Positions 37,585 through 62,489 of a DNA stretch of 64,000 bases are shown one piece after another. The DNA is from Deltaproteobacteria bacterium (GTDB lineage Bacteria; Desulfobacterota; Desulfomonilia; UBA1062), in assembly GCA_018433085.1 (NCBI GenBank), contig JAHDRW010000028.1:4804-68803 (forward strand), read 5' to 3'. The notes under the pieces are model-generated. The model was not told the origin of the DNA and did not search any database. It saw only the letters and a list, made by a program, of their open reading frames with translations. Position numbers and translations under genes: made by a program. Position 1 is the stretch's first letter; each line of letters starts with the position of its first letter.

Positions 37585-38172
37585 TACCGGCTACTCAAGA
37601 TATCCCTGCCCGGCGTACCGGGCAAATGCGCCATCCACCATGGTGCAGCGGGTACAGGTCTCATCGGCGGGGAAGTTTTTCACCCTTGTTCCCTGTTTCT
37701 GAACCAGAGACCTTCCTGCGATTTTACGATAAGACCGCCCAACCGAACACTTCATGATTTTACCGATAACCCGGAACACCAGGGGATGAATAGTGCCGAT
37801 CAGGTCAAAAACATGAGAAATCGGGCCAAAAGAGATCGTGGACCACCCATTGGCCGGTGCCCTGCCGCCTTGCATCTTTCGTCTGTTTGACTTGTACGGT
37901 AAATCATCGTAAAATTAACGACGTGCTCTTTTCGGGGACGGGTTCTCATTTAAGGTTGCTGGAACTTGAAGGTCACACCCTGCCTGCCGAGGTGGATATG
38001 GCGGGGTTTCCATTCGTTTGAAGCGGCGAATAAAACCGCTGCTTATGAGTCCTCTCCGCTGGTGGCCGCGAGTGCCGGCGACTCGCGAGAGTGCTTGATA
38101 CTTGGGGTCTCGCGGGTTGGCCGAGGGGATTGGCTGCCGCGCTTGACAGTATTGATTGAACGAGGTTTTAAG

Positions 38173-39204: not shown

Positions 39205-39279
39205 CGCGCCGGGGCCAGGTTCGCCTGGAGAACAGCCGGCAGGCGCCGCCGCGGGTTCCCTCGATGGTCAAGGGAAATT

Positions 39280-40704
39280 CTATCCGGGGTTGCGGTCTCC
39301 GAGCCATTTGGAGACGATCCGGAAGCGGTCTGCTCCGGGTGCCCCTTTCAGAAAACCGCCCTCCTTCATGACCATCCTGACCTTGCTGACGACACCCAGA
39401 TCCTCCAGGGGGTTTCCCTCCACAGCGATCATGTCCGCGATCCTGCCCGGACCAATGGTGCCGATCCGGTCGCCCATGCCCAGGATCGAGGCGTTGCCCG
39501 ACGTGGCGAGCACGAGCACCTGTGCAGGGGTGAGGCCTGCGAGTTGGAGCCGTTTGAGCTCTTCGGCATAGAAAACCCCGAACAGGGCGGTGGGAAGGCC
39601 GCCCGAGTCGGTGCCCACGCCCACACGGCCTCCCGCATGGAGGATCCGGCCAACGTTGGCCAGGGCATGGGGGAACCCGCGAGCGATGAGGGGCAGATCG
39701 AAACAGGGTTTCGTCCGGTATGTGCTCTGCGGAGGCGGGTAAGGGTCTGTGCGGTAGTTGCGGATGTGCTGCCTCACCTGCCGTAAGGGTTCGGTCTCCA
39801 GGAAGGCCGGCCCTTGCTCGTCAAGCACGGCATCCACGGTTTGCCAGAGCTCGTCGCTCCCGACGTCCAGGCAGGCCAGCGTGGGGTTCAGAACCATTCC
39901 CCGCGCCGCAAACTCGACGGCAACCTCGTCGGGGATCTCCTCCAGCGGGCTGTGCTCGAAGGTGTCGACCCCCATGGACATGGCGTACTCCAGGTCTTCG
40001 AGCCCGCTGATGTGGCAGCACACCTTTCTGCCAAAGCGCCGGGCCGTGTCCATGACCGCCCGGAAGGTGTCCCGGTCGAGCACGGGAAGCTCGCCGCCTC
40101 CCAGCAGCCACGAGCGGTTCTGGCAGTAGACCTTGATCCACTGAGCGCCCCGCCGGATCATCTCGCCTGTCTGCCGGGCCGCCTCTTCGGGACTGCCGAC
40201 CCGTTCGGCGTACTGCCCGCCGAGAAAGGCCTTCACGAAATACCCGAACGAGGGCACCCAGTCCGGGCATCCCCCGGGTGCGGCGATGCACGAGTTGCAT
40301 CGGATGATCCGGGGCCCGGGGATGTCGCCGCTGTCGATCGCGGAGGCGAGACTCGAGAGCCTCCCGAGGAAGCCGCCGGCATCCCGCACCGTGGTGATGC
40401 CCGCCTCGATGCAAGCCCTGGCGTTGCGCTCGATCTGGCGCCCCATGGCAAAGAGTGCCCGGGGAGTCACCTGGTGCATGAAGGGGACGGTGATATGTAC
40501 GTGGGTGTCGATGAGACCGGGCATGAGCGTGAGCCCTCCGAGGTCCACCGGGGTGAATGCCCCGGCCCCGTCAGCCGCATTGCCTTTCTCCACGGCCTTG
40601 ATCTTCCCGTCCTCCACCAGCACCGATCTGTTATCCAGGAGTCTGCCCCGCACGCTGTCGAAGAGCCGGCAATTGAAGAGAACAAGCCGGTTGTCGAATT
40701 TCAT
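39280..40704 (-). CDS. metal-dependent amidohydrolase family protein
   Basis: AGGAGGA SD. N-terminal beta-sandwich (V.DG.I.AV) followed by LMPGLIDTHVHI (the HxH metal motif). Later His/Asp motifs are present (VCCHISG, GTDSG). 474 aa. Confidence 0.8.
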   Translation of the reverse strand: MKFDNRLVLFNCRLFDSVRGRLLDNRSVLVEDGKIKAVEKGNAADGAGAFTPVDLGGLTLMPGLIDTHVHITVPFMHQVTPRALFAMGRQIERNARACIEAGITTVRDAGGFLGRLSSLASAIDSGDIPGPRIIRCNSCIAAPGGCPDWVPSFGYFVKAFLGGQYAERVGSPEEAARQTGEMIRRGAQWIKVYCQNRSWLLGGGELPVLDRDTFRAVMDTARRFGRKVCCHISGLEDLEYAMSMGVDTFEHSPLEEIPDEVAVEFAARGMVLNPTLACLDVGSDELWQTVDAVLDEQGPAFLETEPLRQVRQHIRNYRTDPYPPPQSTYRTKPCFDLPLIARGFPHALANVGRILHAGGRVGVGTDSGGLPTALFGVFYAEELKRLQLAGLTPAQVLVLATSGNASILGMGDRIGTIGPGRIADMIAVEGNPLEDLGVVSKVRMVMKEGGFLKGAPGADRFRIVSKWLGDRNPG

Positions 40705-40782
40705 CCATCCTCCTGTGCGCCGGAAAAGATCCGTTCGGGAAAGTGCGCAGAGACAGGGTGCGAGGTCATTGTTCCCGGGCCC

Positions 40783-41985
40783 TCATGCCGGGAAGGCGGT
40801 CGTCTCTGTCAGACGTTTTCTCAGGTCGTCCTGCACGTTCCCGTCAACCGGCTCGATAACGACCCCCGGTACCCCGCCCGATATCCGGCAGGCATGCATG
40901 AGGACCCGGTCGTCCCAGAGCGTGTGGATGTCGTTCTTGGTGAATGTCTCGGAAAACAGGGCCTGGCCCATGCCGCCCAGCATGCTCACCACATAGCGGT
41001 TGCCCATTCTTGCGACCAGCCGGCTGGTGTCCAGGAACCCGTCCTTTTTTGAAGAGGGCATCACCTGCCTGTTTTCCAGCAGCCATGCCAGCGATACCAT
41101 GTCATGAGCGGGCAGCGACGACGACGCGATGACCAGCCCGTTTTGGGGCTCGGAGACATACCCGTCATCCGGCCCGAAGGTGGCGAGGATCTTGTCGGCA
41201 GCGGTCACGACCAGGCGCTGCTTTGTGCGCAGGGTTTCCACCGTGTTGCCTTCCGCGGTCTTTTCCTGGAGGGTGGACGCCTCCCGGTGATACTCCAGAC
41301 GCGTGTCGGTACGCCAGTAGCCGACCGCGGCCTTCAGGCCGAGGGTGCTGCCTGCCAACACGTGACGGGCGCATCTGGGCATGAGCACGATGTGATCCAT
41401 CTGTTTGAGGATGACGGGCATCATGATGCCGGTTCTCCAGTGCGACCCTGCCGCCGGAGCTTCCTCATAAAAGGCGTCCCAGCCCGCCTCTTCGAAGAAA
41501 TGCAGTTCTCCGCCCGCGGCAAGCACGGCCCGGGCCATGCCGGATGCCTCCATCAGGCTCCGCGAGCTGCCGGAGAGCTTTTCCGGAGAGAGCTTTACGT
41601 GCTCGATGCCTGACATGTCCCCCACCACCACCCGCCCGGCACCTCGGTCCTTGAGGAGCTCGATCATGGCCCCGATGGCTGCAGGGCTGGTGGTGGCCGG
41701 GTAGGGATTGCCGGAATTCAGGACCGGCTTGATAAACACGCTATCCCCCCTGGACAGCCAGGAGAAATCCGAAGCCGCCTCCGCGGCTGCGCGAACGGCG
41801 CGGCGGACAATTTCCTCACCGGATCCCCTGCTCACTCCCGCCAGGAACACGGTTGCATCCCTTCCCCGGGCAGGCACACCAAGGTCCGGTGCCTTGGCGC
41901 TGGTCTCCAGGGTTCCCCCTGCACATGAAGAAACAGCCGCGGCCGCCGAGCCTGCCACCAGTCTCAGAAAGTCTCTCCGTTTCAT
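40783..41985 (-). CDS. Tat-exported DUF362-domain protein
   Basis: ATG at 41985 after a GGAGGGGG SD. Twin-arginine signal MKRRDFLRLVAGSAAAAVSSCAGG. DUF362-like core (VFIKPVLNSG.PYPATTSP...IVLMPRCARHVLAGSTLGLKAAVG). Confidence 0.6.
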   Translation of the reverse strand: MKRRDFLRLVAGSAAAAVSSCAGGTLETSAKAPDLGVPARGRDATVFLAGVSRGSGEEIVRRAVRAAAEAASDFSWLSRGDSVFIKPVLNSGNPYPATTSPAAIGAMIELLKDRGAGRVVVGDMSGIEHVKLSPEKLSGSSRSLMEASGMARAVLAAGGELHFFEEAGWDAFYEEAPAAGSHWRTGIMMPVILKQMDHIVLMPRCARHVLAGSTLGLKAAVGYWRTDTRLEYHREASTLQEKTAEGNTVETLRTKQRLVVTAADKILATFGPDDGYVSEPQNGLVIASSSLPAHDMVSLAWLLENRQVMPSSKKDGFLDTSRLVARMGNRYVVSMLGGMGQALFSETFTKNDIHTLWDDRVLMHACRISGGVPGVVIEPVDGNVQDDLRKRLTETTAFPA

Positions 41986-42472
41986 TGGGTCCCCCTCCAT
42001 GGCGCCGGCATTGTAATTTCTCTCATCTGTGCATACAGGCCCCTTATCCGCGAACCGGTCCCCGGGCATGTTTTTTCTCGGATGTCCGCAGCCAGGATGA
42101 CCGGTCTTTGCCGTTGGATCGGGTGAGCTCGTTTCGTTGCCGGCTGGATAATTATACTCCCTTCAGGCCTTTTCTCAAAACATGATTTTTCCGGTCCACT
42201 GTTCTGAAGATCCCCTTCCGGCCGGTCAACAGGGTTGCATGAGGAAACCGGAAGGCGCTTGTAGACTATCCGGGTGCATGCCCCGTCATAGTGGAAAAGA
42301 AACCCTGTACAAGCCCTGTTCTTTGTGATCGGATGCGTGATTACGGCCCTGAGAGGCATTAAGGGCCGGCCGGGACGGGCACAGGGTCCAGGGGGAAAGG
42401 AAAGCCCCCTGAGTTCGCGGCGGGAGAATCTGGAAAGAAACGGGACAAAAGGAAAGGGAACTCGAGGCGGGA

Positions 42473-49118: not shown

Positions 49119-50339
49119 ATGATGTACCTATTTCACATTCGATCTCTCAAATCACTCGCCTTTCTCACACTCGCGGTTCTCCTCTCGTCGTGCAGCAGCG
49201 ACAGCCACGATCACGATCCCCAGGCGGAGAGCAGCACCGGTCCCGGAGGCGTGCTCTCATCCATCGCCGTCACCCCGGGAAACTCGAGCATCGGCATGCA
49301 GCAGACCAGGCAGTTTACCGCCGTGGGCATCTACAGCAACGGCTCTTCCGAGAATCTGACAGATTCCGTGACCTGGTCCACATCCGACGAGAATATCGTC
49401 AGCATCAGCGAAACCGGCCTGGCCACCGCCCATGCGGAAGGCGACGCGACCATCACCGCCACCATGGACGGCGCCTCGGGCTCTACCCTCGTGAGGGTGT
49501 CTCTCTCGGACGCCACGGACCCCTCACCTCCGGAAAATCCCGATTCTCTCCCCGGCGTCTCGACCGTCATTATCGACCACACCGCCACGAATATCGATGC
49601 CGTGCCGGCTGAATGGATCGAGAAGGCCGCAGAGAGCCTGTGCATCGCCTATGGCCATACCTCCCACGGGAGCCAGATCATCGACGGCATGACCGGGCTG
49701 GTGGATTTCAGGGGAAGCAGCTATGCCTTCAACGCAAGCGGCGCCGGAGGCGCGCTCGAGCTACGCGACACGCCGTTTCCGGGAGCGAACGATCTCGGCA
49801 GCCCGAGCCGCACTGCATGGGCCGGGGCCACCCGGACCTATCTGGACGCGCACCCCGAGGTCAATGTGGTCATGTGGTCATGGTGCGGCCAGGTTTCCGA
49901 CGCCACGGAGGCGGACATCAATACCTATCTGAACCTCATGGATACCCTGGAGGGTGAGTATCCCGAGGTGCGGTTCGTCTACATGACCGGCCATCTCGAC
50001 GGTACCGGTCTCGAAGGGAACCTGCACCGGAGGAACGAGCAGATCCGGCAATACTGCAGGGAGAACGGTAAAATACTCTATGATTTTGAAGACATCGAAA
50101 CCTACGACCCGGACGGCGTCTTCTACGGCGACAGGTATCCGAACGACGCCTGCGCGTACGACTCCGACGGCGACGGGAGCCGTGATGCAAACTGGGCCAT
50201 CCAGTGGCAAAATGCCCATGTGGAGGGCCAGGACTGGTATGACTGCTATTCGGCGCACTCCCAGCCGCTCAATGCAAATCTCAAGGCCTATGCGGCATGG
50301 TCGCTCTGGGCGAGGATCGCGGGGTGGAACGGGCGGTAG
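49119..50339 (+). CDS. lipoprotein with Big_2 (bacterial Ig-like) domain and uncharacterised C-terminal domain
   Basis: GGAGGAGG SD and lipobox LLSSC. The Big_2 pattern is IAVTPGNSSIGMQQTRQFTAVGIYSNGSSENLTDSVTWSTSDENIVSISETGLATAHAEGDATITAT. The C-terminal ~270 aa were not recognised. Confidence 0.65.
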   Translation: MMYLFHIRSLKSLAFLTLAVLLSSCSSDSHDHDPQAESSTGPGGVLSSIAVTPGNSSIGMQQTRQFTAVGIYSNGSSENLTDSVTWSTSDENIVSISETGLATAHAEGDATITATMDGASGSTLVRVSLSDATDPSPPENPDSLPGVSTVIIDHTATNIDAVPAEWIEKAAESLCIAYGHTSHGSQIIDGMTGLVDFRGSSYAFNASGAGGALELRDTPFPGANDLGSPSRTAWAGATRTYLDAHPEVNVVMWSWCGQVSDATEADINTYLNLMDTLEGEYPEVRFVYMTGHLDGTGLEGNLHRRNEQIRQYCRENGKILYDFEDIETYDPDGVFYGDRYPNDACAYDSDGDGSRDANWAIQWQNAHVEGQDWYDCYSAHSQPLNANLKAYAAWSLWARIAGWNGR

Positions 50340-50369
50340 CGGAACATCCGCCGGGAGAGGGTGCAAGGC

Positions 50370-51542
50370 ATGGGTCTCCATCTTTTCGGAGAGGCCCTTC
50401 AAAGAACCGACATGTACCTTTTGCCTGAAGACACGGCCGGGGCGGCTGTCCACCCAATCAACGGGATTGCCCGGATGCCGCTTTCGCAGATCGGACGTCT
50501 CTGCTGCATGATCGACCGGGACAGGCGCCGGCGGGGCAGGGCGCTCGACACGATAGGGCTCGGCCCCAGGGAGACCCCGTCGGAGACCGTGCTGGCAGGG
50601 CCGTCGTTCACGCTGAGGTCGTATGGAGACGCAGGGAGCGAAGGGCGAGCGGTGCTCATTGTTCCGGCGCCCATCAAACGGGCGTATATCTGGGATCTCG
50701 ATCCGCAGATCAGCGTGGTGAGGCGGTTCCTGAAGCAGGGTATCCGGGTCCGGCTCATCCGCTGGGAGATGCCGGGGATTCGGGAGCAGGGGCTCGGTCT
50801 GGCCCATTATGCCGGGCAATGCATCCTCGACTGCCTGGACGCCATGAAACCCGGGTTGGGGGAAAAAAAGCCTTTTCTGGCAGGGCATTCTCTGGGTGGC
50901 ACCTTTGCCGCGATCTTCGCCTCCCTGCATCCCGATATGGTCGGGGGGCTCGTTCTGCTTGGCGCCCCGATCAGGTTCGGACCCGGTATGGGGGCGATCG
51001 ATTCTCTGGTGGCCTGTGCCCCGGATGCCCGAGTGTTCCCCTTTGTGCCGGGAAATGTCCCTGGCTGGTTACTCAGCGCCATGAGCACCTTGGCATCTCC
51101 ATCGAGTTTTCAGACCGAACGGTGGGTCGACTGGCAGGCGAGCCTGCCTGACCCCCGGCTGCTGGCGACGCACGTGAAGGTACAGCGCTGGACCTTGGAC
51201 GAGCTGCCCATGCCCGGGTTGATCTTCCAAGAGATCATGGAAAGGCTCTACCGCCGGGACTGCTTTATGAGCTCCACGCTCGAGATCGACGGTACACTCG
51301 CCTCGCCCCTGAACGTCAGGGCCCCGATCCTCACGGTGGCGGACAGGCGCTCGGTGCTGGTTCCGCCGGAGGCATCCCTGCCGCTGCACGACATCGCCGG
51401 GAGCCAGGCGAACCGGGTGCTCTGGTACGAGGAAGAGCAGGGGGTCGCATTGCAGCACGTGGGGATGCTGGTGGGCAGGAAGGCCCACCGCTCACTGTGG
51501 CCCGGGATCCTCAGGTGGATCGAAGAGTGTGATGAGGCCTGA
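50370..51542 (+). CDS. alpha/beta hydrolase related to PHA synthase (PhaC) N-terminal family, Ser in place of the catalytic Cys
   Basis: VLIVPAPIKRAYIWDLDPQISVVRRFLKQGIRVRLIRW resembles the PhaC core. The lipase box is GHSLGG, not GxCxG. Candidate Asp (VADRRS) and His (LQHVG) residues lie downstream. Start uncertain (50361, 50370 or later). Confidence 0.6.
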   Translation: MGLHLFGEALQRTDMYLLPEDTAGAAVHPINGIARMPLSQIGRLCCMIDRDRRRRGRALDTIGLGPRETPSETVLAGPSFTLRSYGDAGSEGRAVLIVPAPIKRAYIWDLDPQISVVRRFLKQGIRVRLIRWEMPGIREQGLGLAHYAGQCILDCLDAMKPGLGEKKPFLAGHSLGGTFAAIFASLHPDMVGGLVLLGAPIRFGPGMGAIDSLVACAPDARVFPFVPGNVPGWLLSAMSTLASPSSFQTERWVDWQASLPDPRLLATHVKVQRWTLDELPMPGLIFQEIMERLYRRDCFMSSTLEIDGTLASPLNVRAPILTVADRRSVLVPPEASLPLHDIAGSQANRVLWYEEEQGVALQHVGMLVGRKAHRSLWPGILRWIEECDEA

Positions 51543-51543
51543 A

Positions 51544-53877
51544 TCAGCCGCGTTTCCGACCCGAAGAGGCCGGAACGGGTTCCGCGAGGGTTTCCCATGG
51601 CGAATCACCCGGTCTCCCTGTCTCCTTCTCGAAGAATCTCCTGAAAACCAGGAGCAGGGACGAGAGCACGAACAGGTCGCAGATCAGCGCGATGAACAGT
51701 GTGAGCGAGAGCAGCAGCCCGAAATCACGTGAAGGCTGGAAGCCGGAGACGATCACCACGGAGAAGCTCGCCACGATGATCACCGTGGTGAAGATCAGGG
51801 CCCTGCCCACGAGGATGGTGGCCTTTCTCAGAGCGACGTGGAACGTGTTCCTTCCCCCCGCGAGCTCCCTGCGGAACCGGGAGATCAGATGGATGGTGTC
51901 GTCCACGGCAATCCCTAATGCCACGGAAGAGATCATGACCGTTCCCACGTTCAGGCTGATGCCCGCCCAGCCCATGATTCCGATGACGAACATGATGGGG
52001 AGCAGGTTGGGAAGCAGGGACAAAAGACCGAACCGTATCGAGAACAGGATGAGAAAGAGCATCCCGAACACCAGGACGAACGCCAGCGAGAACGACTTGA
52101 TCTGGCTCTCCACGATGTACTTGTCCAGCATGCTCAGGAGGTACGACGAGCCGGTGACGGATATGCGCAGGCCCTCCACCCCGGCGTACGCTGTCTTTGC
52201 CAGGGCGAGTATCTTATCGGAGATGATGCGGCCTTGCTCGGAGCTTCCGTAGGAGAGCTTTACGGCGATCCTTCCCTTGGAGAAGTCATGGCTCGCCACC
52301 CGCTCCAGCTCCTCGGTTCCGGTTTCCGAGAAGCTCAGCAGCAGGATTTCCTGGGCGATGAGCTCCCGTGAGTCCGGAATCCGGTACTCGTCGGGCGAGC
52401 CTTCGTTCAGCGCCCTGTTGAGCGCCTTGACGTAACCGGCAAGCGAGATGACCTTCTTCACCTCGGGCATTGCCTCGATATCCAGCACCAGCGCGTCCAT
52501 GCGGGAGAGGATGCCGGGTTGCATCATGAGATCGCTTTCACCCTCGATGATGACCTCCAGGGTGCCGATACCGGTGAGCTCCCGGTCCAGGGTTTTGGCG
52601 TTGCGGTACATGGCGCTGTCCCGGGGGAACCACTCCAGCTCGTTGGTCTCGATCCGCACCCGGTTCATGCCGAGCACCGCGATGGCAAGGGCTGCCGCGG
52701 TCATGAAGAGAATGAGCCGGGAGTGCCTTTCGTTGATCCGGAACACCGTGGCCAGCAGATGTCCCCAGTACTTGTGCGGTATCTTCCGGTGTGCTGGCGT
52801 CAGCGAAAGCATGAGCGGCACGATGCACAGGGAGATGACGAAGCCGAACATCACCCCTGCCGCGGAAACCATACCGAAGTGCCGCACCGCGCTGATGGGG
52901 CTGGTGGTCAGCGACAGCAGCCCCATGGACGTGGTGATGGAGGTGTGGAAACAGGGTGTGGTGATGTAGGAGACCGCATTGATGAACGAGCGTTCCGCGC
53001 TCCCCTTCTCCCGCACCTCTTCGAAATATTCCATGATATGGACCGTGTTGGACACGGAGAGTATGATGATCAGCGGGATGATCATCCCGCTCAGGGCATT
53101 GAAGCTCAAGCCGAGAAGCGAGTGGAACCCGAGTGTCCAGCAGAGGCTCATGAGAATGACGGCCACGGCAATGCCGATTTTGACCGGGGACCGGAAGAGT
53201 ACATAAACGATGACCACGATAATGGAAAGGCCGAGTATGGGCAGGATGGTCTCGTTCTGCTCGGTCACCCGGTTGAACTCGTGGTTGACCATGATATCGC
53301 CGGAGAGGAAGGTGTCGACCCCCGCCGGCCTGCCCTGCTCCATGCATGCCTCCACCTGGCTGACGGTCTGCGCCATCTCCCGGGCGTCCATGTCGTCGAA
53401 AACCAGCACGATGGCGCCCAGCGTGCCCGACCGCGAGACGAGATACCCGGCGAAGAGCTCGTCCTCGAGCGCATACCGTCTGATCGTGTCCGTGTCCGTA
53501 CTCTCGAGGTTTTTTAGCAGGGGGTTGATCTCCATGCCCTCGGCGGTTCCGATGATCTTGCTGGCCGTGGCCAGGCTGTAGGCCTGCTTTACGCGTTCAA
53601 GACCCTTGAGTTCCTCGGTCTTCAGGCGGAGATAGCCCAGGCTCTCCCGGGTGAAGAGCTCCCCGGCCTGCACGGCAACGATGAGATACCTGCTTCCCTC
53701 GAAGGTGTCCCGGAAGGCCTGGTAGTTGACGGAAACCGGGTCGTCGGGTGAAAACCACGAGCTGATAGAGTTTTCCATCTCCATGGAGATGGACAGCCCG
53801 AAGAAGGCGGTCAGGGCGAGGGTCAGGACACACAGGGCGTATCTGGCCCGGAAGAGGATGTGCGCGATAATTTCCAC
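51544..53877 (-). CDS. MMPL/RND-superfamily transporter (HpnN-like, two SSD-type 6-TM bundles)
   Basis: 777 aa with a duplicated architecture: TM, large loop, then 5 TM, twice. MMPL-like motifs are present (SLCWTLGFHSLLGLSFNALSGMIIPLIIILSVSNTVH; GIAVDDTIH). GTG start with a weak SD. Confidence 0.85.
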   Translation of the reverse strand: MEIIAHILFRARYALCVLTLALTAFFGLSISMEMENSISSWFSPDDPVSVNYQAFRDTFEGSRYLIVAVQAGELFTRESLGYLRLKTEELKGLERVKQAYSLATASKIIGTAEGMEINPLLKNLESTDTDTIRRYALEDELFAGYLVSRSGTLGAIVLVFDDMDAREMAQTVSQVEACMEQGRPAGVDTFLSGDIMVNHEFNRVTEQNETILPILGLSIIVVIVYVLFRSPVKIGIAVAVILMSLCWTLGFHSLLGLSFNALSGMIIPLIIILSVSNTVHIMEYFEEVREKGSAERSFINAVSYITTPCFHTSITTSMGLLSLTTSPISAVRHFGMVSAAGVMFGFVISLCIVPLMLSLTPAHRKIPHKYWGHLLATVFRINERHSRLILFMTAAALAIAVLGMNRVRIETNELEWFPRDSAMYRNAKTLDRELTGIGTLEVIIEGESDLMMQPGILSRMDALVLDIEAMPEVKKVISLAGYVKALNRALNEGSPDEYRIPDSRELIAQEILLLSFSETGTEELERVASHDFSKGRIAVKLSYGSSEQGRIISDKILALAKTAYAGVEGLRISVTGSSYLLSMLDKYIVESQIKSFSLAFVLVFGMLFLILFSIRFGLLSLLPNLLPIMFVIGIMGWAGISLNVGTVMISSVALGIAVDDTIHLISRFRRELAGGRNTFHVALRKATILVGRALIFTTVIIVASFSVVIVSGFQPSRDFGLLLSLTLFIALICDLFVLSSLLLVFRRFFEKETGRPGDSPWETLAEPVPASSGRKRG

Positions 53878-54997: not shown

Positions 54998-55606
54998 TTA
55001 TGCACCCGGTGTGGCCGCGCAATACCGGTCACCCTCCCGGAACACCCGGCCCATCCGCATGAGCCTGTCCAGGTGCTTGTGCATCATGTGCCGCTCCGAT
55101 ACGGCCAGGTTCCAGGCCCCGATGCTCTCTGCCCGTCCATGGATGATCCCCTGGTCCGTTATCCGGTCCAGGGTCGCGGGCCCCTGGCGAAGGAATTCCA
55201 GCGGCCGCTCTTCACGTGTCGCTATGCTTCCGAGGTACTGCTCGATGAGTTCCGGGTCTCCCTCGTGCACCCCTTTCCCGTGAGCGGTGAGGTAGACATC
55301 GGCGGGGATGGTCTTGAGGCGCTTTAAGGACGAGATAGTCTGGTCCAGGTCCGAGACCGGGTCTCCGTAATACGGCCCTGATTTTACCAGGTCCCAGTCC
55401 GCGAGATAGAGAATTCGCTCTTGGGGGAAATAAAAGGAACAGTGCCCCGGGGTGTGGCCGGGCGAGTGCACTACCCGGCACAGTGTGCCGCCCGGATTCA
55501 ACTCAAGGGTCTCGAACGGACACCGTACACCGTCCGTCTCCGCGCCCGTCCATGACCCCGCTCCACGCTTCCGCTTGCGCCGACCGCCGGCATCATCAGG
55601 AAACAC
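54998..55606 (-). pseudogene. MBL-fold metallo-hydrolase, apparently 5'-truncated
   Basis: Contains the distal MBL motifs (HSPGHTPGH, LADWDL, LTAHG) and a C-terminal helical extension. No HxHxDH motif is present. The first ~25 codons (MFPDDAGGRRKRKRGAGSW) look non-native, and no continuation appears in other frames upstream. Confidence 0.5.
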
Positions 55607-55794
55607 CGGTCATTGTAGTATAGAAGATAGCCAGGGGAAACACCAATGATGAGATACTCCGGCGACCGGAAGCGCCCTTTCCCCGGGCAGAAGGATGAGG
55701 CCCCTGGACAATTATCGGCAGAAGGACACGGCGCACTTGTTTTTTATTAGTTATTCAACTAAATTAAATATTGACAACCCCGGCGGGATTCATA

Positions 55795-55812
55795 ATTAGT
55801 CATGTGACTAAT
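55795..55812. promoter_or_regulatory. perfect 8+2+8 palindrome (candidate operator) upstream of ald
   Basis: ATTAGTCA-TG-TGACTAAT at 55795-55812, 3 nt upstream of the ald SD (GAAGGAGG, 55816-55823). A TTGACA hexamer lies at 55771-55776 in AT-rich DNA. Confidence 0.45.
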
Positions 55813-55828
55813 ATTGAAGGAGGTTGCC

Positions 55829-56941
55829 ATGAAGGTTGGTGTCCCCAGGGAGATCAAGGAGCGTGAAGGGAGGGTTGCCATAACCCCGGCAGGGGTGTCG
55901 GCGCTGACCGGCCACGGGCATGTGGTGTATGTGGAGAAGGGCGCCGGGGCGGGCTCAGGCATAACGGACGAGGCCTTTGAAAAGGCGGGTGCGTTCATGG
56001 CCTCGGATTCCGAGTCCCTCTGGGATTCCTCAGAAATGATCGTCAAGGTCAAGGAGCCCGTGGAAGCGGAGTTCGAGCGGATGCGCGAGGGGCAGGTCCT
56101 CTTTACCTACCTGCATCTCGCCGCATCGGAAAAACTGACGGACAAGCTTCTCGAGCGTGGGATCATCGGGATTGCATACGAGACCATCCAGCTCGAGGAC
56201 GGTTCGCTCCCCCTGCTGGCACCCATGAGCGCCGTGGCCGGAAGGTTGTCCATTCAGGTCGGGTGCGCATGCCTGGAGGCGAAAAACAGGGGCAAGGGCA
56301 TCCTGCTCTCGGGTGTCCCCGGGGTGCATCCCGGCAAGGTCACCATCCTGGGCGGAGGCATTTCCGGCCTTAACGCGGCACACCTGGCCGCGGGCATGGG
56401 TGCCCTGGTCACCTTGCTGGACATCAGCCAGAAAAGGCTCGGCTACCTTTCCGACCTCTTCCACTCACGGGCCGTCACCCTCATGTCAACCCCTGCCAAT
56501 GTGGAACGGAGCGTGGTGGAGGCGGACCTGGTCATCGGCTCAGTTCTCGTCCCGGGGGCAAAAGCTCCCCATCTCATCACCCGGGAGCTCCTCAGGAAGA
56601 TGGAACCAGGGTCCGCCCTGGTGGACATCGCCATAGACCAGGGAGGGTGTGCCGAAACGAGCAGGCCCACCACCCACGACAATCCAGTCTACATCGAAGA
56701 GAACATTGTGCATTATTGCGTGTCCAACATGCCCGGCGCGGTGCCCCGTACCTCCACCCAGGCACTGACCAATGTGTCTCTGCCCTATGTGGTGGAACTG
56801 GCGAACAAAGGATGGCCCAGGGCCCTGCGGGAGAACAGCGCCCTGGCAAAGGGGCTGAACGTCATGAAGGGGAGCCTCGCCAACAGGAAGGTGGCCGAGG
56901 CTTTCGACCGGGAGTATACCGACTGCCGGTCGCTCCTGTAA
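55829..56941 (+). CDS. ald: alanine dehydrogenase
   Basis: MKVGVPREIKEREGRVAITPAGV opening, NAD motif ILGGGISGLNAAHLAAGMGA and MPGAVPRTST. 370 aa. The ATG at 55829 follows GAAGGAGG. Confidence 0.92.
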   Translation: MKVGVPREIKEREGRVAITPAGVSALTGHGHVVYVEKGAGAGSGITDEAFEKAGAFMASDSESLWDSSEMIVKVKEPVEAEFERMREGQVLFTYLHLAASEKLTDKLLERGIIGIAYETIQLEDGSLPLLAPMSAVAGRLSIQVGCACLEAKNRGKGILLSGVPGVHPGKVTILGGGISGLNAAHLAAGMGALVTLLDISQKRLGYLSDLFHSRAVTLMSTPANVERSVVEADLVIGSVLVPGAKAPHLITRELLRKMEPGSALVDIAIDQGGCAETSRPTTHDNPVYIEENIVHYCVSNMPGAVPRTSTQALTNVSLPYVVELANKGWPRALRENSALAKGLNVMKGSLANRKVAEAFDREYTDCRSLL

Positions 56942-57152
56942 AGGCTGTATGCCTGAGCGGGAGCACACCGACCGTGGCTCGGCGGGACGATCTGTGGGCA
57001 GGTGCCCGCCCGGACAGGAGGCACCGGTTCCCGGGTGAGCATTGGTGGAGCCGGCATCGGTTCCTGCGCCCCGGGGCGCAGGTTGAACATGTGCGTGGAA
57101 CGGTTCCAGTGTCTGTGCTGGGCCGGATATTTCATGAACGGGGAGGTTTGCA

Positions 57153-58790
57153 GTGGAATATTGTCAGGAAACGGCATTCCTAAACGCGGTCATATGGGCG
57201 GGCAGTCCCATCAGGAAAATGCAGGGAACCATGCGGATCGGGGGCGGGAAGATCCTGGGTATTGCCGCAAACGGACAGGCCCCGGGTGATGACCGGGATG
57301 CCCGGGACCTCACGGGAAGGCACATCATCCCCGGGCTCATCGACGCGCACCGGCATTTTTTCATATCAGCGCTTATCGCCCGGCACCGGGACGCGGGCGG
57401 ATGGAAGTCCAAATCCGATGCCCTGGACGCCATCCGTGAGGCGTGCCGCGGGGACCGGTCACCGGCCGGGTGGGTGTTTTTCTCGCGCATGGATCATACG
57501 AAGTGGAAGAATCCCGTACTGCCCACCTTAAGAGAGATGGACGCCATAGCCGGGTCGCGGCCGGTATTCGTTACGGACCTTACGCTGCACCGGTCGCTGG
57601 CTTCCACCGAGGCGATGCGGCGTGCGCAGCTCAGCAGGGATAGTCTCCGCTTTGCCGGGGACATGGATGTCCGCCGAAACGGCGAGCTCAAGGGCACCGT
57701 GTGGGAGGAGGCCCTTGGCAGAATTCTGTCCACCATGTACCGGGAGACGCTCCGGCATGCAACCGGGCAGGAAAAGCGGGAGATCATCCTCCAGGAGGCG
57801 AGCCGGTGCATCCGGATGGGTATCACCCATGTCCATGACCCGGGTGTCTCTTCCGACGTGCAGGTTCTCCTGGACGACGCGGGCAGGCATACCCCCCTGA
57901 AAATCAGCTGGGCGGTCGCTTCCGGGCAGTGCCTGTATACGCCGCCGTGCAGCGATGACGAGGCCGAGGCCGTCCATTCCCCCCATGCTCCCAGGAGCGT
58001 GAAATTCTTCCTGGACGGAGCCCATCGCACCGCGGCCAGCATGCCGGTCATGGCGGGCCTCAAGGCAACGATCCGGGCGGGGTTCGACAGCGTGTCCCAG
58101 ATGAACCTCGCCCCCGTGAAGCTCCTGCTCGAGCAGAAGATTCTCCTGAAGGGCGGGCGTCTGGTCATGCCGTATCTGCGGTTCGAAGATGCCCGTGATC
58201 TCCAGAAGCGGGCATCCGTGTTCTCCGAAAAAGGCTACCGGCTGGTGATTCACGCACTGGGAAATGTGGCCGTCCGGCAGGCGGCCGAGCTCATCAGGAC
58301 GATCCGGCCCGCCGGCGGTGCTTCGGTGGAGCACCTGCTCGTCATGGACGACGAAGACCTGGACATATTCGCCGGATGCGGGGCCGTGGCGTCGGTCCAG
58401 CCGGGCTTCATTCCCGGGTACGCCGAGACCATCGAGCGCATGGGGGCCATACCTTATCTGAAAACCTTTGCCCTGGGCAGCATGAAAAGGCGGGGCATCC
58501 CTGTCTGCATCAGTTCGGATGGACCCTGCGGGCCGGACGATCCCCTGTACAACGCCAGAAGGGCCGCAGACCGGAGAAAACCCGACGGCACCATGCTGGA
58601 TCCCGACGAACGGCTTTCCCAAGAAGACGCCCTGGCCGCCGCCAGCATCGGGGGAAGTCTCTCCATGGGCATGGCCAATGGGGGGCTGTGCACGGGAGCA
58701 CCTGCAACGTTCTGCGTGGTGGACGGAGACCCCTTCTCCGATGCGAGCCGCGTGATCCAGACCTGGATCGACGGGGTGAGGGTATATTGA
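57153..58790 (+). CDS. amidohydrolase family protein (Amidohydro_3-type, TIM-barrel metal hydrolase)
   Basis: GTG at 57153, 6 nt after GGGGAGG. IIPGLIDAHRHFF (HxH motif), a later VHDPG, IHALGN and SSDGPCG motifs, and the C-terminal W.DG..V. Confidence 0.8.
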   Translation: MEYCQETAFLNAVIWAGSPIRKMQGTMRIGGGKILGIAANGQAPGDDRDARDLTGRHIIPGLIDAHRHFFISALIARHRDAGGWKSKSDALDAIREACRGDRSPAGWVFFSRMDHTKWKNPVLPTLREMDAIAGSRPVFVTDLTLHRSLASTEAMRRAQLSRDSLRFAGDMDVRRNGELKGTVWEEALGRILSTMYRETLRHATGQEKREIILQEASRCIRMGITHVHDPGVSSDVQVLLDDAGRHTPLKISWAVASGQCLYTPPCSDDEAEAVHSPHAPRSVKFFLDGAHRTAASMPVMAGLKATIRAGFDSVSQMNLAPVKLLLEQKILLKGGRLVMPYLRFEDARDLQKRASVFSEKGYRLVIHALGNVAVRQAAELIRTIRPAGGASVEHLLVMDDEDLDIFAGCGAVASVQPGFIPGYAETIERMGAIPYLKTFALGSMKRRGIPVCISSDGPCGPDDPLYNARRAADRRKPDGTMLDPDERLSQEDALAAASIGGSLSMGMANGGLCTGAPATFCVVDGDPFSDASRVIQTWIDGVRVY

Positions 58791-58856
58791 GGTAAAGTGA
58801 ACAGTGGAGTGGCAATAAACCATGCGTGAGAAAATCATGCAGTGAAGGAGGATTGT

Positions 58857-60260
58857 ATGGGATACAGCGGGTGTAGGAAAATGGATGTCCAGGAGCGTGA
58901 CTATGTCCAGCACCTTTTCGGCAGGCATATCTCCAGAGGCCAGGTGAGATACCTGAGGTGCGCGCACCTGGATATCTATGAGCGCGACCGGCAGGGCTGC
59001 ACGGTGACGGATGCGGTTTCGGGGAAGCGATTCTTCGACTGCTTCAGCTCCGCCGGGTGCTTCAACGTGGGCAGGGGCAACCCGAAGATCAGGGAGACCC
59101 TGGAGAGAGCCCTGGACGACTGGGACATGGGGTCGCACCGGATGCTCTCGGAGCCCAAGATCAGGTTTGCGGAGAAGCTTGCATCGCTCTGTCCGGGCGA
59201 CCTCAAGAAGGTGGTGCTCTGCGCGACGGGCGCGGACGCGTGTGCGGCGGCCATAAAGCTGGCCAAGGGCGCCACGGGCAGGAACGACGTGATCACCATG
59301 GACAAGGCGTACCACGGGCACGAGGGCTTCAGCCTTTCCGCCAACGGCAAAGACTACTACAAGGAGCTGTTTCTGCCCCTGATGCCGGGATTCCACGTCG
59401 TTCCGTTCAACGACCTGGAGGCGGTAAGGAAGGTGGCGTCAAAGGACACCGCAGCCATCGTGCTGGAGCCGGTGCAGGGTGAGGGCGGCATTCACGTGGC
59501 CACCCGGGAGTTCATGAACGGCTTGAGGAAGCTTTGCGACGAACTGGGCATCATGCTCATCTTCGACGAAGTCCAGACCGGCTTCGGCCGTACGGGCAAG
59601 CTATGGGGGATGGAGCACTATGGGCTTGTCCCGGACATCATGTTCATCGCCAAGTCAATCAGCGGTGGGTTCTACCCCAACGGCGCGGTGGTCTACCGTG
59701 ATACTGAACGACTCACCGGCTACGTGGAACAGAATCCCCTTTTTCACTCATCCCACTCGGGCGGATCGGACTTGGGCTGCATCGTTTCCTCGGCCGTGTT
59801 GGACTACCTGGCCGAGAACAAGGTCTGGGACCACGCGGCAGAGATCGGGGCGCGGTTCAAGGAAGGGCTCATGGAAATATGGAGGGAAAACAGCCACGTG
59901 GTTCGGGAGGTGAGGGGGCTCGGCCTCATGATCGGCATTGAGTACAAATACGAGTTCCTGGGCGCGCTCATGGCCGACTGTCTGGCAAAGCAGGGCGTCT
60001 GGGCGGTGTACTCGGGCAACGCCCCGCAGGTCATGCGATTCCAGATCCCCGTCACCGCCGCCATGGACGAGGTGGAGGAGCTCCTGGCCCGCATCAGGGC
60101 CGCGGTGGACTCCATGAAGATATACCTGGTTCTTCTCCTTCCTCTGGCGAAGGTTCCCCTGTTCCGAATGGCTCTCGACAACCTGAAGGTGCAGATCATC
60201 GCATTCAACCTCGTGCGGGATCTGGAAGAGTTCGTCTTCAAGTATGTACTGAAGCGGTAA
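58857..60260 (+). CDS. class-III PLP-dependent aminotransferase (catalytic lysine present) with C-terminal hydrophobic extension
   Basis: ATG at 58857, 5 nt after GAAGGAGG. Motifs ATGADACAAAIKLAKG, YHGH, LEPVQGEGG, IFDEVQTGFGRTG and PLP lysine in FIAKSISGG. About 45 extra residues follow the fold (KIYLVLLLPLAKVPLF...). Confidence 0.85.
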   Translation: MGYSGCRKMDVQERDYVQHLFGRHISRGQVRYLRCAHLDIYERDRQGCTVTDAVSGKRFFDCFSSAGCFNVGRGNPKIRETLERALDDWDMGSHRMLSEPKIRFAEKLASLCPGDLKKVVLCATGADACAAAIKLAKGATGRNDVITMDKAYHGHEGFSLSANGKDYYKELFLPLMPGFHVVPFNDLEAVRKVASKDTAAIVLEPVQGEGGIHVATREFMNGLRKLCDELGIMLIFDEVQTGFGRTGKLWGMEHYGLVPDIMFIAKSISGGFYPNGAVVYRDTERLTGYVEQNPLFHSSHSGGSDLGCIVSSAVLDYLAENKVWDHAAEIGARFKEGLMEIWRENSHVVREVRGLGLMIGIEYKYEFLGALMADCLAKQGVWAVYSGNAPQVMRFQIPVTAAMDEVEELLARIRAAVDSMKIYLVLLLPLAKVPLFRMALDNLKVQIIAFNLVRDLEEFVFKYVLKR

Positions 60261-60273
60261 GGGAGGTGCGGAA

Positions 60274-61536
60274 ATGAAAAAGGCAGTTTCGACCAAACAA
60301 ACGGACAGGGACACGAAACAGACCGACAGGGACAATCTCTTTGCAGCAGCGGAGCGGGTGTTTTCCAAAAGTTTTGTGGATGATATCCGGAGCAGGGGGC
60401 ATGGCTTCCTGGAGGCAGGCCGGGAGGGTTCGTATATCTTCGATGAAGAGGGCAACCGGTATCTCGACTGCTTCACTTCAGCCGGGACCTTCAACCTGGG
60501 CAGAAAGAATCCGGCCATAGCGGCGCAGCTTAAAAAGGCACTCTTTGAAACCGACCAGGGCAACTTCGTGATGCCCTCCGAAGAAAAGGCCCTGCTTGCC
60601 AGAAGGATCGCCGAATTTGTGCCTGGCAGTCTGGAGTGCGTCCTCTTCGGGGTGACCAGGGGCGAGTCCATGGATGCGGCCTGCAAGCTCGCCCGGGGGT
60701 TCACGGAGAGGCCTGAGCTCATAACGGTGGACGGAGGGTGCTACGGAGAATCCGGGTTTGCCTTGAGCCTCTCCGCCAGAAAGGGCAAGGAACAGTTCGG
60801 CGCACTGATCCCCGAGGTGAAGGTCGTGCCGTTCGGCGATGCGGATGCGGCACGCTCGGCAATCAGCCCCCGGACAGCGGCCTTCATCATGGAGCCCGTG
60901 CAGGCGGAGAACGGCTGCCGGGAGGCCGAAAAGGCGTACTACGCCCAAATCCGCTCCCTGTGCGACCGGCACGGTGCAAAGCTCATCTTCGATGAAACCC
61001 AGAGCGGTTTCGGGAGAACCGGCGCCCGGTTCTTCTTCGAACACATCGGTGTGGAGCCGGACATCCTCATCGTGGGAGAGGCCATCACCGGAGGCGTCTT
61101 TCCCATGACGGCCATGGTTTTCACCCCTGAGCTCAAGGGGTTTTTCGACATACACCCGCTCATCCATCTCTGCACCTTCGGCGGACACGATCTGGGCTGC
61201 AGGGTGGCCATGACCGCGCTTGACGAGTATGACCGGGAGTGCCCCTGGGGGAACGCCCGGGAAACGGGCGAGAAGCTGATCAAGAACCTGGGAGGGCTGG
61301 CGGGCGGAAACAAGCCCCTGAAGTCGGTGACAGGCAGAGGACTGCTCATCTCGCTCAATTTCGGTGCAGAGGAAACCGCCGGCGCATTCTGTTCCCATGC
61401 GGCAAAGAACGGGCTGTTTGCTGACACCGGCAGGGTGGACGGCTCATGCGTGCTGCTGAGGCCGAGCCTGCTCATAGGCGGGGAAGAGGCGGCCGCTGTC
61501 ACGGATGCGGTGGAGCGCACGCTGAAATCGCTGTAA
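60274..61536 (+). CDS. class-III aminotransferase paralogue lacking the PLP-binding lysine (Glu at that position)
   Basis: Aligns along its length with the upstream gene (FDCFSSAGCFNVGRGNP vs LDCFTSAGTFNLGRKNP; IFDEVQTGFGRTG vs IFDETQSGFGRTG). It has IVGEAITGG where the partner has FIAKSISGG (GAG codon at 61078-61080), and CYGE instead of YHGH. Confidence 0.8.
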   Translation: MKKAVSTKQTDRDTKQTDRDNLFAAAERVFSKSFVDDIRSRGHGFLEAGREGSYIFDEEGNRYLDCFTSAGTFNLGRKNPAIAAQLKKALFETDQGNFVMPSEEKALLARRIAEFVPGSLECVLFGVTRGESMDAACKLARGFTERPELITVDGGCYGESGFALSLSARKGKEQFGALIPEVKVVPFGDADAARSAISPRTAAFIMEPVQAENGCREAEKAYYAQIRSLCDRHGAKLIFDETQSGFGRTGARFFFEHIGVEPDILIVGEAITGGVFPMTAMVFTPELKGFFDIHPLIHLCTFGGHDLGCRVAMTALDEYDRECPWGNARETGEKLIKNLGGLAGGNKPLKSVTGRGLLISLNFGAEETAGAFCSHAAKNGLFADTGRVDGSCVLLRPSLLIGGEEAAAVTDAVERTLKSL

Positions 61537-61740
61537 TCAGATCCTCGGGCAAACCACGTACCGGCATACCAGAAGGGGGGGCAACTTCACTTCAGGTCCC
61601 CCCCCTTCCCGCTTTTCCTCCGAGAGCGGAACCCCGAGCCCGGAGGGCCACGGGCGACCGTGATCCGGTCCTGTTGATTCACAGGGAGTAATGTGCCATA
61701 CTCTGGGGCACTGATAGCACCGGAGAAAGGTGGCCGAATC

Positions 61741-62331
61741 GTGGCAAGGAAACCGGTACGGGAAGAGCGGAAAAAGCAGATACTCAAGGCGCTGGACCAG
61801 TGCCTTCGGGAGAAATCCTTTCAGAAGACCTCCATCAAGGATATCTCCCGGGTTGCTGGCGTAAACCACGGTGTGCTGCACTATTATTTCGCGAACAAGG
61901 AAGACATCCTCCTGCAGTATATCGATTACGTGGTGAAGGACTTCAAATCGCAGATGCAGGAGCTGACGGCATCCGGAAACATGCCAGGCATGTCGCAGGC
62001 CGATTTCGTCAGGGAGGTCTTCGGCTTCGTGAACCACAGGATCACGCTCGACCGGAATCTCTCGAAGATCTTCGTGGAGATCTGGGAGATCGGGCTGTAT
62101 AATGATGCGGTGCGCGCAAAACTGCGGCAGGCGTATGTCGAGTGGATTCAGACCCTGGCCGGGAATATCGGCGGCGGCTCGACGGACACGGATGCCGCGT
62201 CCGTCATGAGTGTCGCCATGGTTGCCTTCTGGGAGGGAATGGCGCTGCTCTCCACGGTATTCGAAAACGGGGAGATACGGTTCGAAGAGGTCCTTGAGAG
62301 ATTTCAGCAGCAGATCATCGAGATTCTGTAA
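61741..62331 (+). CDS. TetR/AcrR-family transcriptional regulator
   Basis: HTH region ILKALDQCLREKSFQKTSIKDISRVAGVNHGVLHYYFANKEDIL. The frame is open from the GTG at 61693. The GTG at 61741 after GGAGAAAGG is preferred, but the start is uncertain. Confidence 0.8.
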   Translation: MARKPVREERKKQILKALDQCLREKSFQKTSIKDISRVAGVNHGVLHYYFANKEDILLQYIDYVVKDFKSQMQELTASGNMPGMSQADFVREVFGFVNHRITLDRNLSKIFVEIWEIGLYNDAVRAKLRQAYVEWIQTLAGNIGGGSTDTDAASVMSVAMVAFWEGMALLSTVFENGEIRFEEVLERFQQQIIEIL

Positions 62332-62489
62332 AATGTTTCCGGCCTCCACCGGCCCATGCCGGGGACGGGTGAGATGATCCGCCCGCCCGTTTCTTCTCGG
62401 GCCGGCGGGTTGTGGTGCTGTTCATGGAATTGGGGCACGGGGAAAGGGGATGCCCTTCCCCCTCTCTCCCGCGCCGGATGAAGGTATGG

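Follow-up and report, generated by a model that had tools for sequence, protein, structure and literature searches.

A tandem pair of class-III aminotransferase paralogues, one lacking the Schiff-base lysine, as candidate subunits of a heteromeric enzyme

Introduction

Class-III aminotransferases, which include the omega-transaminases and the GABA, ornithine and putrescine enzymes, are textbook symmetric homodimers as well as industrial biocatalysts. The two-chain glycine decarboxylase P-protein (GcvP), a fold-type-I enzyme of the glycine cleavage family and hence of other chemistry, is a heterodimer of paralogous chains, one of them lysine-less, with one active site at their interface. Here we examine a 64,000-nucleotide stretch of the genome of a Deltaproteobacteria bacterium (GTDB lineage Desulfobacterota, Desulfomonilia, UBA1062; GenBank assembly GCA_018433085.1, contig JAHDRW010000028.1, positions 4,804 to 68,803 of the forward strand), referred to throughout, at its full length, as the window. 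It carries a tandem pair of genes, AT1 and AT2, that code for class-III paralogues, of which AT2 lacks the Schiff-base lysine. We propose, with an estimated probability of roughly 0.75, that the two proteins make up an obligate heteromeric class-III aminotransferase of the YgjG-like kind, as its alpha and beta subunits.

The best match for both subunits, in sequence and in fold, is YgjG/PatA of E. coli (PDB 4uox; PMC4244111), with E=1e-70 for AT1 and 3.6e-51 for AT2. In YgjG, pyridoxal 5'-phosphate (PLP) is linked as a Schiff base to Lys300, with Asp271 in contact with its pyridine nitrogen and Phe180 stacked against the ring; the phosphate is bound by Gly150 and Thr151 together with Thr332 from the other subunit (PMC4244111). 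The pair shares with YgjG an extended N-terminal helix region and the same set of PLP-binding motifs, including the threonine from the other subunit. The subunits of YgjG, however, are identical and form two equivalent sites per dimer, whereas AT1 and AT2 are diverged paralogues (37% identical), one of them without the lysine and the other with a C-terminal tail. AT1 is not a PatA orthologue, because it scores 297 bits against a 612-bit equivalog cut-off, and neither is AT2. That is, the PatA/YgjG equivalogs (NF008570, TIGR03372) failed for AT1 (296.9 vs 612 and 249.5 vs 658.65) and for AT2 (217.2 vs 612).

The arrangement itself resembles SerTA (Ser4/Ser5) of Serratia sp. ATCC 39006, which a 2024 paper presented as the first aminotransferase of heterooligomeric build to be studied (PMC11726168). 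SerTA is encoded by tandem genes, has one lysine-less subunit and one two-chain active site per heterodimer, and its subunits are soluble only on co-expression (PMC11726168). It belongs, however, to the sugar-aminotransferase (DegT-type) branch, its Ser4 chain is truncated to about 210 residues, and it comes from a single biosynthetic cluster, whereas AT1 and AT2 are both full-length class-III proteins, occur in many phyla and lie in a catabolic-looking operon. Eukaryotic serine palmitoyltransferase (SPT) LCB1/LCB2 (PMC3794620) is likewise a heterodimer of fold-type-I paralogues with one lysine-less chain and one active site at the interface, but it is an alpha-oxoamine synthase with other chemistry and not a class-III aminotransferase.

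Literature searches for heteromeric or heterodimeric class-III transaminases found none, and the only heteromeric aminotransferase described in the literature searched was SerTA, which is of another class. A first-pass annotation of the window, made from its letters and open reading frames (ORFs), had suggested that the pair could represent a new enzyme organisation. This would be so for class III, but the organisation is not new in kind, since SerTA (PMC11726168) and SPT were already known with a lysine-less protomer. In concept, therefore, a lysine-less heteromer of the kind proposed here was anticipated, although within class III it would be new, widespread and uncharacterised. Among the hallmarks of heteromers with a lysine-less protomer, the constant co-occurrence of the paralogues is found here outright, and a two-chain site with complementary loss is found at the level of sequence.

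Active-site positions of the two paralogues

Both proteins match Aminotran_3 (PF00202) over its full length (289 bits for AT1 and 218 bits for AT2; cut-off 30.5) and align with each other at 37% identity across 377 residues (E=8e-77), in agreement with the paralogy claimed for them in the first-pass annotation. That annotation had also called one paralogue catalytically intact and the other not, and the aligned Schiff-base position indeed holds K266 in AT1 and E269 in AT2. The two codons, AAG and GAG, differ by one base.

To follow these positions beyond the window, columns were read by hidden Markov model alignment over 135 distinct AT1 and 132 distinct AT2 sequences, with gapped sequences left out of the denominators. 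Lysine occupies the Schiff-base position of AT1 in 124/124 orthologues, and the cis set as a whole (K266, D237, Q240, Y152-H153 and G125) is present in all of the 117-124 orthologues aligned per column; AT1 also carries R394. AT1 thus has the lysine, Asp, Gln, aromatic and phosphate-loop residues of a class-III enzyme, which AT2 does not (K->E269, G->R129, F/Y->C156). Glutamate stands at the lysine position of AT2 in 123/123 locus-derived orthologues and in the 120/120 best database homologues (51-100% identical). In the phosphate loop, R129-G130 replaces Gly-Thr in 128/128 sequences, and C156-Y157 stands where F/Y-H is expected, so that the ring-stacking aromatic is replaced. AT2 keeps D240 (every sequence aligned there), Q243 (Q in 115/124) and R396. 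The database holds thousands of AT2 homologues; when these were reduced to one representative per 50% cluster, about ten clusters formed the AT2 clade, all with the Arg-Gly loop, Glu for Lys and Thr301, and the nearest relatives outside it were ordinary Lys-bearing enzymes.

The threonine that reaches across the interface, equivalent to Thr332 of YgjG, is distributed the other way. T301 of AT2 is Thr in 122/122 locus-derived orthologues and in 119/120 best homologues. The same position in AT1, residue 300, is Thr in 5/123 orthologues, the others being mainly H (41), S (19), Y (14), F (11), M (9), L (9) and I (8), whereas canonical Lys-bearing relatives have Thr or Ser there in 129/131 cases. 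The trans Thr/Ser of class-III enzymes is therefore found only across the pair, through T301 of AT2. As read from these alignments, the losses are complementary: the cis residues of AT1 and the trans Thr of AT2 are fully conserved, and the reciprocal site is dismantled on both sides. Such losses are to be expected of an AT1:AT2 heterodimer with a single composite active site, and the pattern would be hard to explain by separate AT1 and AT2 homodimers. The residue after the Y-H-G motif of AT1 is His, not Arg; in GabT/OAT-type enzymes an Arg after this motif binds the distal carboxylate of 2-oxoglutarate.

Two further sets of paired genes serve as natural controls. The first is a second, unrelated family of pairs (L154 552-3061; L155 5001-7477; L157 3047-5652), in which the genes run DUF6206, lysine-less Aminotran_3, Lys-bearing paralogue, so that the order of the two aminotransferases is reversed relative to AT1-AT2. 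In 3/3 of these pairs the lysine-less member (K->R, R and H) has kept the trans Thr, and the Lys-bearing member has replaced it (Thr->E, D and E). Since the DUF6206-linked pairs show the same complementary pattern, the architecture and its signature arose at least twice. The other control is a single locus (L153 192-2833), where the AT2-like partner (P0136) combines the Arg-Gly signature with a Schiff-base Lys, and the AT1-like partner, of 463 aa with a similar tail, retains the trans Thr. This pair may represent an intermediate stage of evolution in which both sites work.

Conservation and co-divergence of the tandem genes

An AT2-centred scan, with one genome per species, yielded 67 loci, to which an AT1-centred scan of metagenomes through the C-terminal signature of AT1 (YSGNAPQVMRF plus the tail) added 80. 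In this total of 147 loci, spread over roughly ten phylum-level lineages, AT1 directly precedes AT2 wherever the locus is informative. The 67 AT2-centred loci alone carry at least nine phylum-level labels, namely Thermodesulfobacteriota (including Desulfomonilia-type metagenome-assembled genomes and Desulfosudis), Spirochaetota, Bacteroidota, Nitrospirota, Hydrogenedentota, SAR324, Myxococcota, Actinomycetota and Synergistota. A Lys-bearing AT1-type gene lies immediately 5' of AT2, on the same strand, in 65/65 genome loci with upstream DNA, and AT2 is present in 75/75 metagenome loci with room downstream of AT1. That is, a survey of genomes for tandem pairs with the K-to-E change, which had been named as a check on the heteromer idea, found the pair in every informative locus.

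The two genes are tightly spaced, at -25 to +34 nt in 121/126 pairs, and overlap by 4 nt in 34 of them. Pairwise divergences of AT1 and AT2 are correlated across loci (mirror-tree r=0.92, against 0.00 with shuffled partners), and AT2 evolves at about 1.2x the rate of AT1. With the neighbour present in 65/65 and 75/75 loci, the tandem arrangement is far beyond chance. AT1 and AT2 are not sister clades in a rough neighbour-joining tree. Among cultured organisms, the pair is found in Desulfococcus (Desulfosudis) oleovorans Hxd3 (CP000859.1, about 1,264,439-1,267,059). At one Thermoleophilia locus (L057 5788-8001), the AT1 ORF runs on for about 270 Ala/Arg/Gly-rich residues after the conserved tail, and the AT2 start overlaps it by 4 nt; this extension may be real or an artefact of a high-GC ORF.

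Predicted folds and the AT1 tail

AlphaFold2 monomer models give a complete class-III fold for AT1 and for AT2, with mean confidence (pLDDT) of 86.5 and 85.8, respectively. The best fold match of AT1 is YgjG 4uox, at a template-modelling (TM) score of 0.84.

The unusual hydrophobic tail noticed at the C-terminus of AT1 is real and is conserved across phyla, throughout the family, with the motif MK.YL..LLPLA+IP..R..LDN..VQI..FN..RD.EE. In the model the last canonical helix is lengthened (residues 403-431) and is followed by extra helices at 434-440 and 443-463, with pLDDT 76-87. Its most hydrophobic 19-residue Kyte-Doolittle window, at 422-440, reaches 1.84 and holds two Pro, a Lys and an Arg. 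The tail could act as a clamp of the heterodimer, as a lid, or in contact with membrane or lipid.

Gene context and a candidate pathway

Genes next to the pair, counted over all 147 loci, include a TetR regulator (68), alanine dehydrogenase (51), an Amidohydro_3 enzyme (27), an Amidohydro_2-family hydrolase of about 305 aa (20) and a Zn-dependent alcohol dehydrogenase (Zn-ADH; 13), the last lying directly 3' of AT2 in Hydrogenedentota, Nitrospiraceae and Myxococcota. Of these loci, 62 extend for 3.5 kb or more to each side of the pair; among them, TetR is found in 39, Ald in 32, any amidohydrolase in 29 (Amidohydro_3 in 19), Zn-ADH in 8, and none of these in 13. The gene order in D. oleovorans is TetR (minus strand), Ald, Amidohydro_2, AT1, AT2; in another genome, AT1, AT2 and Amidohydro_3 come after a sigma-54 activator, and their stop and start codons overlap. 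In a complete genome (L152 3039-7167), TetR-AT1-AT2-Ald adjoins an operon of AdoMet decarboxylase, a FemAB-like acetyltransferase, an ATP-grasp enzyme and an ornithine/arginine/diaminopimelate decarboxylase, with ectoine genes downstream, a context that gives a weak hint of polyamine or compatible-solute amines as substrates.

In the window, ald lies upstream of the pair and a TetR gene downstream, as the first-pass annotation had it. The former scores 525.9 bits, above the TIGR00518 equivalog cut-off of 391.85. A perfect 18-bp palindrome is located between a TTGACA hexamer and the ribosome-binding site of ald; it occurs once in the window, against 0.05 occurrences expected by chance. Palindromes of the TTAGTnnnnnnnnACTAA type (TTAGT-N8-ACTAA) are found in about 22 related loci just 5' of ald, AT1 or the Amidohydro_2 gene, i.e., of the first gene of the operon. 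The palindrome before ald is a probable operator, to which the TetR protein would bind. Since a scan for consensus promoters detected no sigma-70 site in front of ald, the TTGACA hexamer is only recorded as present. Taken together, the recurrence of ald and TetR beside the pair and the conserved palindrome before the operon lend weight to the earlier suggestion of a small nitrogen-handling module, and we consider it reasonably probable that the pair is part of an inducible amine:pyruvate deamination module.

The amidohydrolase gene had been counted as part of this module. It adjoins the pair here, but it is accessory: elsewhere Amidohydro_2 or Zn-ADH takes its place, and it is absent from the closest relatives, L002 and L004. 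These two loci, with flanks 86-90% identical to those in the window, lack the 3.35-kb ald-amidohydrolase segment (window 55493-58846), which replaces 1.06 kb of their sequence; the AT pair itself is 80% identical to theirs at the nucleotide level. Given this replacement, the ald-amidohydrolase segment looks like a gained or lost cassette. A minus-strand ORF beside it (window 54998-55606) encodes only the C-terminal half of a metallo-beta-lactamase fold (Pfam profile positions 104-196), compared with 296-377 aa in relatives, and its missing half sits in the 1.06-kb segment of L002/L004.

The amidohydrolase is, by its sequence features, a YtcJ/Nsfd-like metal-dependent hydrolase. It has an HxH motif at 64-68, K284, H367, H393 and D456, which we take, from the superfamily, to be the metal ligands. 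Its nearest structures are the uncharacterised Pyrococcus hydrolases 3igh and 3icj, both weak matches. An amidohydrolase-type deacylation that frees the amine is put forward only tentatively.

A route of this kind has been described for taurine and bile-acid amides, in which Nsfd/3ICJ-like PF07969 (Amidohydro_3) hydrolases release taurine in organisms with Tpa, Ald and SarD (preprint, PMC13081988). As would be the case in the module considered here, the hydrolase frees an amine, a class-III aminotransferase passes its amino group to pyruvate, and Ald recycles pyruvate; an alcohol dehydrogenase may reduce the aldehyde. In the enzyme of B. massiliensis, one of these taurine-selective metal-dependent bile salt hydrolases (mBSH), the taurine sulfonate is bound by S144, Q290, N337 and H393. 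Tpa, however, is not described as heteromeric, and AT1 is much nearer to YgjG (E=1e-70) than to 6jix, the taurine aminotransferase of known structure (E=4e-35). Taurine was examined as a candidate substrate, on the leads of the UniRef name attached to AT1 of D. oleovorans and the mBSH analogy. It is kept as a candidate only: AT1 is far closer to YgjG than to 6jix, and it also lies nearer to PigE than to the taurine enzymes, and the scan of window ORFs turned up no genes for sulfonate cleavage.

A predicted composite site and its alternatives

In the proposed heteromer, each AT1:AT2 heterodimer would have one working PLP site. AT1 would contribute in cis K266 as the Schiff base, D237, Q240, Y152/H153, the phosphate-loop G125 and R394, and from across the interface AT2 would add Thr301 together with nearby loops. 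Glu for Lys, Arg for the phosphate-loop Gly, the loss of the stacking aromatic and the release of AT1 position 300 from constraint would disable the reciprocal site. In this genome, the YtcJ/Nsfd-type amidohydrolase would first free a primary amine from an N-acyl conjugate; the heteromer would then move its amino group onto an acceptor, presumably pyruvate, which the co-transcribed Ald would regenerate with release of ammonium and NADH. In some clades the Zn-ADH would reduce the aldehyde. The adjacent TetR protein would repress the operon ald-hydrolase-AT1-AT2 through the palindrome before ald.

The first-pass proposal, an obligate heteromer in which one subunit is catalytic and the other is not, thus draws support from the tandem conservation, the tight spacing, the co-divergence and the complementary active-site losses, from which we infer that the chains associate. 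Several observations weigh against it, or against the pathway built on it. AT2 keeps D240, Q243, E212 and R396 within a strongly conserved pocket, which is more than a scaffold needs, and its site may bind something. The H, S or Y found at AT1 position 300 (74/123) could still hydrogen-bond the phosphate, making AT1 homodimers possible, and four or five basal AT1s retain Thr. As to the pathway, the amidohydrolase is missing from L002/L004, so that its step is not essential to the pair; ald adjoins the pair in only about half of the loci; and YgjG, the nearest characterised relative, is described with 2-oxoglutarate in its second half-reaction (PMC4244111). For AT1, AT2 and the amidohydrolase, every NCBIfam equivalog scores far below its cut-off, so that none of them assigns a substrate.

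Some of these points would fit a model of two separate homodimers, in which AT1 is an ordinary transaminase and AT2 serves the same pathway by something other than transamination, such as ligand binding, sensing or chaperoning. The conserved AT2 pocket (D240, Q243, E212, R396) and possible phosphate contacts from H, S or Y at AT1 300 are compatible with such a model, and co-occurrence alone implies only a shared pathway. It leaves unexplained, however, why AT2 should retain T301 in 122/122 sequences, when the only known role of this residue is in the PLP site of the partner, while the equivalent position of AT1 drifts; in an AT2 homodimer T301 would serve a lysine-less site. Moreover, the complementarity arose independently in the DUF6206-linked family and reverts jointly in L153, and overlapping stop and start codons suggest equimolar synthesis. 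We therefore regard separate homodimers as quite unlikely. Less likely still is that AT2 is itself active without the lysine, whether PMP-dependent (pyridoxamine 5'-phosphate) or Glu-based, in a complex with two different active sites. Lysine-less fold-type-I dehydratases of the ColD/E1 type, with His for Lys, are active with PMP, and the invariant E269, R129, D240, N213 and DQGNF motif of AT2 point to selection on its pocket. Glu, however, is incapable of forming an aldimine, the phosphate-loop Gly-Thr has become Arg-Gly, the stacking aromatic is lost, and the lack of constraint on the trans residue of AT1 speaks against a cofactor phosphate in that site.

Because AAG and GAG differ by a single base, AT2 might also be taken for a decaying duplicate, or the K-to-E change for a sequencing error. 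However, over 130 distinct orthologues, 45-78% identical, have intact full-length ORFs and share the invariant Glu; the model of the full fold is confident, and AT2 evolves only 1.2x faster than AT1. The conservation data refute both readings, and we give them a negligible probability.

A variant of the heteromer is that the AT2 pocket (Glu269, Arg129, Asp240, Asn213, DQGNF) constitutes a second, lysine-independent site, be it allosteric, substrate-anchoring, or the seat of a reaction of its own with the aldehyde or amide partner; the AT1 tail might clamp or gate the complex. We consider this unlikely, if less so than the alternatives above. If true, the pair would be a two-function complex, and, because the pair architecture arose at least twice, a functional pocket would amount to a new design principle for class-III PLP enzymes.

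If AT1 and AT2 do form the proposed heteromer, many metagenomic genes labelled 'aspartate aminotransferase family' are probably mis-annotated as stand-alone enzymes, which may explain failed single-gene expression. The pair would offer a natural system for the evolution of pseudoenzyme partners from homodimers, and asymmetric active-site architectures for engineering; this asymmetric class-III version would have arisen independently at least twice, with one intermediate found in nature. It also points to an uncharacterised, inducible amine-deamination module in anaerobes of digesters and sediments. Since D. oleovorans Hxd3 is cultured and genome-sequenced, the hypothesis is directly testable.

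Gene map and other features of the window

The features of the locus are collected in Table 1. The gaps measured from these coordinates, 66 nt between the amidohydrolase and AT1 genes and 13 nt between AT1 and AT2, are those given in the first-pass annotation.

Table 1. Coordinates of the AT1-AT2 locus and neighbouring features (window positions)
Feature	Position	Strand	Remarks
Big_2-domain lipoprotein-like gene	49119-50339	+	upstream of module
alpha/beta hydrolase	50361-51542	+	upstream of module
MMPL/RND-type transporter	51544-53877	-	upstream of module
TTGACA hexamer	55771-55776		upstream of palindrome 55795-55812
perfect 18-bp palindrome	55795-55812		ATTAGTCA-TG-TGACTAAT; between TTGACA hexamer and ald ribosome-binding site
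ald, alanine dehydrogenase	55829-56941	+	370 aa; first gene of the operon; TIGR00518 and Pfam AlaDh_PNT_N, AlaDh_PNT_C
amidohydrolase (Amidohydro_3)	57153-58790	+	545 aa; PF07969 E=6.8e-47, end to end
AT1, class-III aminotransferase, candidate catalytic subunit	58857-60260	+	467 aa; Aminotran_3 E=6e-86
AT1 K266 codon (AAG)	59652-59654	+	Schiff-base lysine; motif FIAKSISGG
AT1 H300 codon	59754-59756	+	position of trans Thr (YgjG Thr332*), degenerate
AT1 C-terminal tail, hydrophobic/amphipathic	60114-60257	+	residues 420-467, about 47 residues
AT2, lysine-less class-III paralogue	60274-61536	+	420 aa; Aminotran_3 E=1.7e-64
AT2 E269 codon (GAG)	61078-61080	+	Glu at Schiff-base position; motif IVGEAITGG
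AT2 T301 codon	61174-61176	+	trans-acting Thr; would complete AT1 site
TetR-family regulator gene	61693-62331	+	TetR_N domain, PF00440 E=1.9e-10
terminator-like hairpin	62366-62385		3' of TetR gene; terminator scan

The longest ORF of AT1 opens at GTG 58842. Because AAGGAGG precedes ATG 58857 instead, the true start is assigned to the latter; the resulting protein is identical to a 467-aa sequence (P0271) in an NCBI-sourced collection. The AT2 protein likewise has an identical entry (P0001) in the collection. Its start codon, ATG 60274, has GGGAGG upstream, and that of ald, ATG 55829, has GAAGGAGG. A 21-nt tandem duplication near the 5' end of AT2 (window 60295-60334) encodes TKQTDRD twice and accounts for the 420 aa of the protein here, compared with 413 aa in close relatives; the repeat region is disordered in the AlphaFold2 model.

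The 211-nt spacer between ald and the amidohydrolase gene contains a perfect 20-nt GC-rich palindrome, CCTGCGCCCCGGGGCGCAGG (window 57063-57082), with no T-tract after it. The transporter, alpha/beta hydrolase and Big_2 genes upstream of the module are syntenic in close relatives only and are thus probably unrelated to the pair. Farther upstream lies a separate cluster (33168-42069). On the minus strand it encodes a RuBisCO-like protein (RLP), a third class-III aminotransferase (34535-35998) and a sugar kinase of the FGGY family; a plus-strand AraC regulator comes next, and an Amidohydro_1 enzyme and a DUF362 protein, again on the minus strand, follow. This cluster may specify an RLP-dependent route for a sugar or amino sugar.

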